Shown here piece by piece: positions 32,210 to 34,390 of a stretch of DNA of 64,000 nt. How positions within the stretch are numbered: position 1 is the first letter of the stretch; every line of letters starts with the position of its first letter. The DNA is from Bacteroidota bacterium (GTDB taxonomy: Bacteria; Bacteroidota; Bacteroidia; Bacteroidales; UBA10428). The stretch is taken from the NCBI GenBank assembly GCA_003252385.1, contig QKEH01000139.1, positions 22,598 through 86,597 on the forward strand, in the 5' to 3' direction. The notes beneath the pieces are model-generated. The model saw only the letters and a list, made by a program, of their open reading frames with translations. It did not search any database and was not told the origin of the DNA. The position numbers were made by a program, and so were the translations under genes.

Positions 32210-34390
32210 ATGAATCTCAAACAAATTCATATTAAATATAGGTTTTATCTCCAACTTGCGCTGTTTGTGCTATTCATGGCCTGTTTGGCCTTTAGTACGT
32301 ACCAGCTGTCCCAAAAGGCGAGTCGTGCACAAAAGTCAACACTGGAATTGTATAGTTTGGTTGAAGAAAGCGAAAACGCATTCATTCAGTATGTCAGTTT
32401 CCTATACAACCTCAATAGTACGGACGAGTTCTACCAAACCGGTTCCAATAGTAATACAAGAGCGTTACAAGCCTCGCTGCAAAGTTTGGAAGATACTTTG
32501 CAAGTCTTCTCTAATAAGAACCGTTTTGCCGCCAGACTGGCAAAACTCGGTTGGAACGACTCCCTGCGAAACGCCCTGGAAGCAGTCCAGGCTAATTTTC
32601 AGTTAACCAGCTTAACCCTTAAAGAACTGGGCAATAAAAACTCCGGACAAACCGGACATGCCCTGGCCTCCAGCAATCAAATTAAATTGCTCTTACGCCC
32701 CTATCCGTATCCATCCTTGCATAATGAGCTCGCCCGGTTACAATTTGCCGAGTCGGAATTTATTTTTAGTAAAGATCAACAGGCATACAACGATGCCCTG
32801 GAACACTTGGAATTGTTGCAATACGACCCAAACCTGGGAATGCTGGATTTCAGTATCCAGGATGAAATCCAACAGCACGCCGAAACCTATAAAAACTATT
32901 TATCACTAATACAAGCTTCCCTAAACAATCTGGGAAGCATCGCCAGCGGCCAGGGTTTGCTTCCTGATATGGAACACTCCTTACGTAACTTGGAAAACCA
33001 AGCCCACAACTACCAGGAGCATGCCCAAATGGAACAGGAGAAATACTCCCGGAATGCATGGTTGGCCGGAATCTTTTTGCTGCTGCTTATTGCAACAGGA
33101 TACCTCTATCAGCTCTACCGCTTTTATGCCAGTGTATACAATCCGCTGGAGTCTTTATCCGATTTCTCGGTTCAACTGGCTAAAGGTCATAAAAAAGTGA
33201 CTGCCTTGGAAACCCGAGTTCCTGCTGAATATGTCCATGTTTTTACCCATCTGAACGAGGTCTATCAATCCATTCAGAAAAAACGCGACTTTGTTGATAA
33301 TTTGCTTAAACAAAATTTCGATTCTGAACTGACTCTGCAGGGAAAACACGACCAGTTTGGTAAAACTTTATTGGCCTTGAAAGAAAGCATGCGAAAAGCC
33401 CGCAACGAAGAGTTAAAGTATGCAGAGGAAAACCAGAAACGCCAATATCAGAACGAAGGCATTGCCAAATTCTCCGAAATTATGCGCTCCCACAGCGACA
33501 GCCTGTCGGAGCTTGCTGATGAATTTATCAAAAACATTGTACGATACCTGGAGGCCATTCAGGGCGGTTTATTCTTAATCGACGAAGAAAAACCGGAAGT
33601 AATGAACCTGGCAGCAGCCTTTGCATACAACCGGAAGAAGTATCTTTCCCGAACCATTAAAATTGGAGAAACCCTGGTGGGAACCTGTGCCCAGGAAAAG
33701 AAAACAACACATCTGAACGAACTGCCCGAAAACTACATCGAAATTACCTCAGGTCTCGGCGAGACCCCCCCCAGCAATCTCCTACTGGTTCCCATCATGC
33801 ACGAAGAGCTATTGATCGGAGTGCTTGAAATGGCCTCCCTAAAAGCATTCCAAAGTATCCAAATTCAACTATGCGAAAAAATTTGCGACAGTCTGGCTTC
33901 CACGATTATTAATGCTCGCATTAGCACGAGAACTGCTGCCTTATTGGAAAAATCGCAGCAGCAGGCCGCCGAGATGGCGGAGCAGGAAGAAGAAATGCGC
34001 CAAAATATGGAAGAATTACAAGCCACCCAGGAAGAATCGCAACGCCGTGAAGAAGAACTGGAAGGCTTCCTGGAAGCTATCGATCAGTCTTTCTATGTTT
34101 TAGAATACAACACCAGCGGAACAATTATTAAAGTTAATCAGCGCTTCCTGTATTTAACCAACCTATCTATTGACAAAATCATTGGTAAAACCCATCGGGA
34201 AATATTTGGATCTAAGAGTAAAGTCGATTCGGCTTTCTTTGCCAAAATTGCAGATGGAAATATTGTCGATCTGACCGAGGTCGTCATCATAAATGATAAA
34301 AAGCTGGAGCTGAAAAATACCTTCTCCCCGGAGAAAGACCGGTCCGGAGAAACGATTAAAATATTAAATATCATGACAGTGATCATGTAG
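32210..34390 (+). CDS. Membrane sensor with MCP-like topology but no MCP signalling domain: TM, ~270-aa helical periplasmic domain, TM, HAMP-like linker, GAF, coiled coil, PAS
   Basis: I chose the ATG at 32210 ([28 protein letters not shown]). The second TM segment is [17 protein letters not shown]. The GAF core is [13 protein letters not shown]...[32 protein letters not shown]. The coiled coil is [29 protein letters not shown], and a PAS-like C-terminus follows ([19 protein letters not shown]). Confidence 0.75.
   Translation: [726 protein letters not shown]

Follow-up and report, generated by a model that had tools for sequence, protein, structure and literature searches.

In the classical methyl-accepting chemotaxis proteins (MCPs) Tar and Tsr, the second residue of each Glu pair is the modified position, and interchange of Glu and Gln at this residue is the classical sign of a methylation site that is deamidated by CheB. 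A comparable element outside the MCPs, the "methyl-accepting coiled coil" (MAC), is credited to Wuichet and Zhulin (2010) by two sources, according to which MAC1 proteins include CheB and CheR domains and MAC2 proteins go with separate ones (PMC6943060; bioRxiv 10.1101/2022.05.07.491037). Receptor and kinase roles are described as joined in both classes, and the second source specifies a histidine kinase (bioRxiv 10.1101/2022.05.07.491037). Here we describe a helix with heptad-spaced Glu pairs in a membrane sensor (hereafter sensor 1), encoded between two CheR genes in a 64,000-nucleotide stretch of contig QKEH01000139.1 from a Bacteroidota bacterium (the window, to which all unlabeled coordinates refer). 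The original prediction, made from this DNA alone, had proposed the helix as a candidate non-MCP methyl-accepting element, an idea which, by the account of these sources, is a rediscovery of the MAC concept proposed in 2010. The Glu heptads are the best candidate in the operon for a methylated "adaptation" site outside the classical chemoreceptors, and we hold it to be about an even chance that the helices of the operon are methylated by CheR as a MAC-type adaptation site.

How does this locus compare with the systems already described? As in MAC2, a non-MCP helix with heptad Glu pairs is encoded beside separate CheB and CheR proteins (these are fused in MAC1), and neither CheW nor an MCP was found at the locus. 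Fragments annotated by the Joint Genome Institute (JGI) as CheB/CheR fusions, retrieved with a query modeled on the coiled coil of CheB/CheR fusions, carry four to five NEELQS[AT] heptads followed by PAS_10. This MAC1-type heptad has the same order of EE, L, Q, small residue, T and polar residue as EELQATQ of sensor 1, and both precede a PAS domain; the fragments differ in having four to five near-identical NEELQST repeats, whereas a single fixed 18-residue signature is present here. Unlike MAC proteins, neither motif-bearing sensor of the operon has a histidine kinase: sensor 1 has no output domain, and the second (sensor 2) has a PP2C phosphatase whose output would pass to SiaB and SiaC. Judged from sequence, what is new relative to MAC is the absence of a histidine kinase from the motif sensors, the single fixed signature, and an output of SiaA/SiaB/SiaC type followed by a TerB-ABC transporter.

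The likeness to the helices of Tar and Tsr lies in Glu/Gln pairs seven residues apart on one helical face, with the second residue conserved and E/Q interchange at that position. EELQAT in sensor 1 and EEMRAT in sensor 2 fit the MCP consensus Glu-Glu-x-x-Ala-Ser/Thr, and NMEELQATQ of sensor 1 resembles SMEQLTATV, which we take to be a Tsr site. Unlike MCPs, the sensors have no MCPsignal domain and a single GAF-PAS helix is predicted in place of the antiparallel hairpin bundle; no CheW was found locally (CheA was not searched), there is no C-terminal pentapeptide, and three of the four pairs lack flanking small residues. The output genes are akin to SiaABCD of Pseudomonas aeruginosa, sharing a PP2C protein with an N-terminal membrane sensor, a SiaB-family kinase and SiaC in the same gene order. 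They depart from it in that a TerB-ABC transporter and not the diguanylate cyclase SiaD follows, the phosphatase input is GAF-helix-PAS-PAS, and two CheR genes and a CheB are added. Scores against the SiaA and SiaC equivalog models fall under their cut-offs, so these proteins are family members and not orthologs of the Pseudomonas proteins. A literature search found no paper on SiaB/SiaC together with CheR or on CheR/CheB with a Sia-type switch, none carrying the motif strings, and, for Perlabentimonas and che genes, none mentioning the genus.

Anatomy and conservation of the Glu-pair helix

The sensor and the helical elements on which the argument turns are as follows.

32210-34390, + strand: sensor 1, 726 amino acids (aa), with a transmembrane segment (TM), a periplasmic helical region of ~250 aa, a second TM, GAF, a long helix and PAS, and no output domain (Pfam)
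33854-34090 (about), + strand: continuous 79-residue helix from GAF to PAS (AlphaFold2), holding 33914-34072
33983-34036, + strand: invariant 18-residue core with pairs 1-3, ending [Q/K]ATQEE (translation), with EELQAT inside it
37568-37651, + strand: paralogous helix motif of sensor 2, ENEEQLQQNAEEMRATQEELQKSNEQLE, with the pairs EQ, EE (EEMRAT), EE and EQ (translation)

In sensor 1, Pfam places GAF at residues 430-566 and PAS at residues 622-725, and hydrophobic segments at residues 12-30 and 284-302 bracket the periplasmic region. An identical 726-aa gene call is recorded on a public metagenome contig. Translation of 33914-34072 (+) yields four EE pairs at a spacing of exactly seven residues, and E-E-L-Q-A-T at 34010-34027 matches the MCP consensus; both had been claimed in the original prediction and both hold. 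A DNA tandem repeat was considered as the source of this periodicity and ruled out, since none was detected at the Glu-pair segment; the heptad spacing is thus a feature of the protein.

An AlphaFold2 model of the sensor 1 fragment encoded at 33440-34387, built on a 37-sequence alignment (mean predicted local distance difference test score, pLDDT, 91.6), has an uninterrupted helix at fragment residues 139-217 with pLDDT >90, which begins where GAF ends and stops where PAS begins. In MCPs, as the original prediction had noted, such residues lie on one face of an antiparallel coiled coil; the model predicts a linker between GAF and PAS with no hairpin bundle. The helix may form a dimeric coiled coil. 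The nearest solved folds to the fragment model are GAF-helix-GAF/PAS modules of phytochromes and phosphodiesterases, and no chemoreceptor was among them. A PDB sequence search with the helix alone and with a 27-sequence profile returned only 14-3-3 and designed helical proteins at non-significant E-values, and no MCP; the helix appears to have no solved relative.

Conservation was assessed in two sets of loci: 79 genome loci from a motif-based scan of genome contigs, covered with flanks of up to 10 kb on each side, and 80 metagenome loci fetched by CheB alone (CheB at least 70% identical). Across both sets, 77 distinct DNA sequences with saturated synonymous sites encode the 18-residue core: every one of the six codons for Arg and of the six for Leu is used, as are both codons at each Glu and Gln. 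An identical peptide across saturated synonymous sites implies selection on each amino acid. The core is invariant in 54 distinct helices linked to CheR/CheB and in 86 unlinked ones, and among the best 120 database homologs, which reach down to 37% overall identity, the stretch ending [QK]ATQEE hardly varies. No other part of sensor 1 is as conserved as the helix, GAF and PAS included. Counting from the Arg of RQN as offset 0, the second residue of each pair is a conserved Glu over five heptads (-9, -2, 5, 12 and 19), and in the outer pairs the first residue is variable. Each conserved Glu stands immediately before a hydrophobic core position, and polar residues (Q, N or T) are fixed at the other core-type position, a pattern which suggests marginally stable, switchable packing. 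Invariance is not confined to the core, as positions f and g on the surface do not vary either. An R-T that is likewise invariant is found where the helix begins, at its N-terminal end, and not at its center.

E/Q-rich linkers are common enough in sensors that the original prediction had allowed for a chance match, a caveat which the conservation data contradict. In favor of coincidence, the consensus has few positions and is matched by just one of the four pairs. EExxA[ST] occurs just 10 times in 316,044 residues of non-family open reading frames (ORFs) from the 79 loci, ~0.03 per 1000 residues, and three-pair runs are essentially nil outside the family: the five three-heptad EE runs in the same background all lie in four ORFs that are motif proteins missed by family clustering. 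This background rate, together with the 77 DNA versions of one peptide, rules out an E/Q-rich linker that resembles the consensus by accident, an explanation with a negligible chance of being right. By these sequence comparisons the Glu-pair pattern is a family signature and not a coincidence.

Sensor 2 carries a helix in the same register as that of sensor 1, and no further such runs were found in the six frames of the window beyond these two. Among 53 distinct PP2C-type orthologs, pairs 2 and 3 are invariant, and a position table gives the second residue of pair 1 as E30/Q21/R2 between invariant neighbors. These E/Q/R states need at least eight changes on a neighbor-joining tree of the adjacent CheB, a count that is approximate because the tree rests on a short, highly conserved protein. 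The two Arg cases (L145 and L157) are loci without a CheR gene directly upstream of CheB, a match that is anecdotal as the two represent one lineage. Directly upstream of CheB, L157 (3182-9568) encodes a PAS-helix-PAS protein with NEELYASNEALYVTNEEL heptads, and L145 has an unrelated ORF of 191 aa. Conserved [EQ][EQ] pairs lie entirely within the helix in sensor 1 and mostly within it in sensor 2, and none were found in the small GAF protein, SiaB or SiaC of the operon.

The operon and its link to CheR and CheB

With two CheR proteins and a CheB encoded around a sensor that is not an MCP, what else does the operon contain? Its remaining genes are listed here.

31344-32189, + strand: CheR_a, protein-glutamate methyltransferase (Pfam CheR 1.7e-36 plus CheR_N), with the canonical S-adenosylmethionine (SAM) motif AGCSTGQEVYS
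34407-35237, + strand: CheR_b, a second CheR paralog (Pfam CheR 1.1e-21) with a divergent SAM-motif region
35241-35798, + strand: CheB methylesterase/deamidase, catalytic domain alone without a receiver (Pfam CheB_methylest 1.1e-47)
35800-36576, + strand: small 2-TM protein with GAF and without the helix motif (Pfam GAF_2), a conserved operon member present in 15 loci
36584-39211, + strand: sensor 2, with 2 TM, GAF, helix, PAS, PAS and a SpoIIE/PP2C phosphatase, SiaA-like (Pfam SpoIIE, PAS, GAF)
39233-39814, + strand: SiaB-family protein kinase (NCBIfam SiaB_fam_kinase 175.5 bits, cut-off 85; Pfam DUF6272)
39828-40208, + strand: SiaC-family regulatory phosphoprotein (Pfam SiaC 145.9 bits, cut-off 24.5)
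40252-43353, + strand: TerB domain, ABC ATPase and ABC-2 membrane transporter, a possible output (Pfam), found with the operon in 12 loci
43394-44341, + strand: conserved distal member of the operon, lipoprotein-like in its hydrophobic N-terminus and Cys, without a Pfam hit and present in 13 loci

All operon genes lie on the + strand with intergenic gaps of 1-43 nt (1-21 nt from CheR_a through SiaC). Pfam bears out the gene context first read from the DNA, with a CheR gene on either side of sensor 1 and CheB two genes downstream. Sensor 1 contains GAF and PAS only and sensor 2 GAF, PAS and SpoIIE, with MCPsignal (PF00015) in neither; sensor 2 scores 1.8e-48 against the NCBIfam SiaA model, under its equivalog cut-off, and 64.5 bits against Pfam SpoIIE, over that cut-off. 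Neither HisKA nor HATPase_c was found by Pfam in sensor 1, in sensor 2 or in 10 sampled paralogs, and no GGDEF domain among the 17 ORFs scanned at 27076-51210. By tblastn, the MCP signaling domain and CheW are absent from the window and from 158 related loci with the exception of L074; CheA was not searched. Around the operon, 27076-29769 holds two adjacent TonB C-terminal domain proteins (-) and a Schlafen AlbA_2 protein (+), and a lysyl-phosphatidylglycerol-synthase-like membrane protein (29995-31143), which recurs in six related loci, lies directly before CheR_a. At 46978-51210 (-), an ORF of 1410 aa joins a glycogen synthase domain, DUF3417 and a glycogen phosphorylase domain.

CheB and CheR_a look active from their conserved motifs. 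The 16 CheB orthologs compared average 76% identity, and the residues aligned by eye to the CheB catalytic triad (Ser11, His38 and Asp131) are invariant; the CheR_a SAM motif is kept in all orthologous loci. In addition, CheB is 84-89% identical to its closest orthologs, compared with 50-68% for the neighboring sensors. CheR_b of the window has VPFCISGGEL in place of the CheR_a motif, and an alignment of 36 CheR sequences gives P.CVSG.EL[YF]S for this region of CheR_b in every orthologous locus. Its retention in each of them indicates a maintained paralog and not a decaying copy, and CheR_b may be non-catalytic or altered in specificity.

The linkage of sensors and enzymes was followed in both sets of loci. 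In the motif-based set, CheR is present in only 18 and CheB in only 17 of the 79 loci within the DNA covered (tblastn, with which hidden Markov models, HMMs, built from the operon agree), and the PP2C sensor, SiaB, SiaC and the ABC transporter are found in 12-14 of the 79. The 10 closest genome loci (46-68% identity) all have the arrangement CheR-sensor-CheR, and all but the truncated L008 have CheB. In the CheB-based set a motif sensor is present in 49/49 loci with adequate flank, and a PP2C-type motif sensor in 38/38 with at least 2.6 kb downstream. Sensor 1 is absent from eight of the CheB-based loci, which read CheR-CheR-CheB-GAF-PP2C; the minimal module would thus be the enzymes plus the sensor 2 helix, with sensor 1 a frequent accessory. 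The EE register, when checked in the orthologs linked to CheR/CheB, is conserved in every one.

The wider motif family

Beyond these operons the motif belongs to a much larger family. In 60 unlinked loci it is found in dCache_1-HAMP-GAF-helix-PAS(n) proteins without an output domain, often in tandem arrays of two to four genes. Such loci span L011-L079 (for example L015:4044-13033, L060, L073 and L075), all from Bacteroidota and all with the invariant helix motif. By its predicted domains the N-terminus of the family is chemoreceptor-like, with a periplasmic sensor, TM and HAMP. HMMs built from the operon added no divergent CheR, CheB, SiaB or SiaC to the tblastn matches in the unlinked loci, and all-against-all clustering of 1028 ORFs gave no other conserved neighbors of the unlinked paralogs. 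The register is therefore only in part the CheR/CheB-linked trait it was taken for: it is invariant in linked orthologs and equally so in the 60 loci with neither gene nearby.

Two loci stand apart from this pattern. L074 (Rhodocytophaga aerolata, 3898-15458) encodes a true MCP (PAS x4, HAMP_2, MCPsignal) with the motif between two PAS domains, adjoined by a GAF-helix-PAS protein, a histidine kinase, CheW, CheY and a receiver-containing CheB. At L160:10001-12109 a gene (P0083) represents a HAMP-GAF subfamily of ~550 aa that ends ~40-50 residues past the helix motif; it lies beside a convergent SiaC-family gene and a MacB-like permease, and CheR/CheB are not nearby. At L160 the motif and SiaC are thus linked a second time, independently of the operon.

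Methylation, signal transmission or docking

If the helix is a methyl-accepting element of a MAC-type adaptation module, it would carry signals from GAF to PAS and be tuned by the enzymes encoded around it. CheR_a, perhaps aided by the divergent CheR_b, would methylate the heptad glutamates, probably at the second residue of each pair, and the receiver-less CheB would demethylate them and also deamidate the Gln of sensor 2. Since CheB has no receiver, any feedback would have to come from substrate conformation. Neutralization of charge on one helix face could shift the packing and reset the signaling state of PAS and, in sensor 2, that of PP2C as well. PP2C phosphatase, SiaB-family kinase and SiaC would together make up a Ser/Thr partner switch as the output, with the TerB-ABC transporter of the following gene as a possible target; the position of this transporter in the place of SiaD suggests that it may be the SiaC target.

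Several observations weigh against methylation of the helix. CheR and CheB are known to act on an antiparallel four-helix bundle, unlike the GAF-PAS linker helix here, and a single helix bridging two domains is the arrangement of the GAF tandems of phytochromes and phosphodiesterases. In our own reading of the sequence, three of the four pairs in sensor 1 do not match Glu-Glu-x-x-Ala-Ser/Thr; one pair per helix meets EExxA[ST] (EELQAT in sensor 1, EEMRAT in sensor 2), with heptad spacing present. Pair 4 is not conserved beyond close orthologs, as paralogs of sensor 1 keep its second Glu alone, and in the 53 sensor 2 orthologs it is Q/K/H. Sixty of the 79 genome loci have no CheR/CheB in the surrounding DNA, 37 of them with ~10 kb on each side, and the core is as invariant in the 86 distinct helices from these 60 loci as in the linked ones, so recognition by CheR/CheB is at most a possible cause of the conservation. 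Should the genomes of the unlinked loci lack both enzymes, the conservation would have another cause; unlinked invariance would fit CheR/CheB encoded elsewhere and working in trans, as happens with scattered MCP genes, and would fit equally well a methylation-independent role such as docking or signal transmission. The linkage counts are drawn from Bacteroidales operons that are related to one another and do not represent independent phylogenetic events. No CheR-helix fusion is present among the best 150 of 30,927 CheR relatives (1.84 billion representatives searched), which are stand-alone CheR, CheR-CheB or CheB-CheR fusions, all without the helix; these homolog lists appear to reach ~1.75 times the query length (proteins of up to 553 aa with a 316-aa query and of up to 90 aa with a 51-aa query), a range outside which full-length fusions lie. 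One source also describes MAC proteins as without experimental characterization as of 2022 (bioRxiv 10.1101/2022.05.07.491037). The proposal of a non-MCP methyl-accepting helix therefore stands in part, upheld by gene linkage, E/Q alternation and the MAC1 analogy and weakened by invariance in unlinked loci, a weak consensus and the geometry.

Conserved linker helices need not be modified at all. S-helices, reportedly described by Anantharaman, Balaji and Aravind in 2006, are said to be linkers of ~40-50 residues that join signaling modules and have ERT at their center as a signature; their conservation is mostly confined to this signature and the core positions. The present helix is S-helix-like in spanning at least 40 residues between two signaling domains, in its polar Q, N and T at d-type positions and in the invariant Arg-Thr at its start, and unlike S-helices in that all 18 motif residues are fixed, exposed ones included, and in the linkage of its genes to CheR/CheB. 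An unmodified, family-specific signaling helix, whose invariance would reflect packing and mechanics or a common partner and with the CheR/CheB substrate elsewhere or of another residue class, is a possible but rather doubtful account. It is favored by the identical motif in 60 loci without nearby CheR/CheB, by the resemblance of the R-T start to the ERT signature, and by L074, where a true MCP, already equipped with MCPsignal, carries the motif between PAS domains. CheR is also able to methylate non-receptor proteins, for example PhoP (PMC8546571). Yet such a helix leaves unexplained why two CheR genes and a CheB are kept beside motif sensors in 49/49 loci, why variation at one pair position is restricted to E/Q, and why surface positions f and g are invariant, and the other signaling proteins of the operon offer no substrate with conserved Glu pairs. 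Quite unlikely, in our estimate, is a helix that serves chiefly as a docking or hetero-oligomerization surface, by which output-less receptors would pair with the PP2C sensor or a common partner, the Glu faces providing specificity and methylation being secondary. Sensor 1 and most paralogs are indeed output-less and often in tandem arrays of two to four, the helix is more conserved than GAF or PAS, the register is common to sensors 1 and 2, and the ~550-aa subfamily that adjoins a SiaC gene stops right after the helix; the unlinked paralogs, however, show no conserved partner gene alongside them.

MAC-type methylation could extend well beyond this operon. The helix would then be the shared signaling "tip" of a Bacteroidota-wide superfamily of output-less dCache/4HB-HAMP-GAF-helix-PAS receptors, often in tandem arrays and independent of CheA/CheW, and in operons of the present kind methylation by CheR/CheB would give a partner switch (PP2C-SiaB-SiaC, controlling a transporter) chemotaxis-style adaptation, without a His-Asp phosphorelay, in non-flagellated bacteria; we consider this broader proposal unlikely. 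To our knowledge, the orphan CheR and CheB proteins of non-flagellated Bacteroidota have no known substrate. The operon supplies a compact, soluble and mutable candidate in its two GAF-helix-PAS fragments, with five glutamates and one natural Gln, and PP2C activity on SiaC would be a direct read-out. If methylation proves true, chemotaxis adaptation enzymes would be attachable to a Ser/Thr partner switch, and an 18-residue motif fixed across hundreds of sensor genes would gain a function. Were methylation refuted, an exposed helix that does not vary would still point to a common partner for a very large family of receptors.

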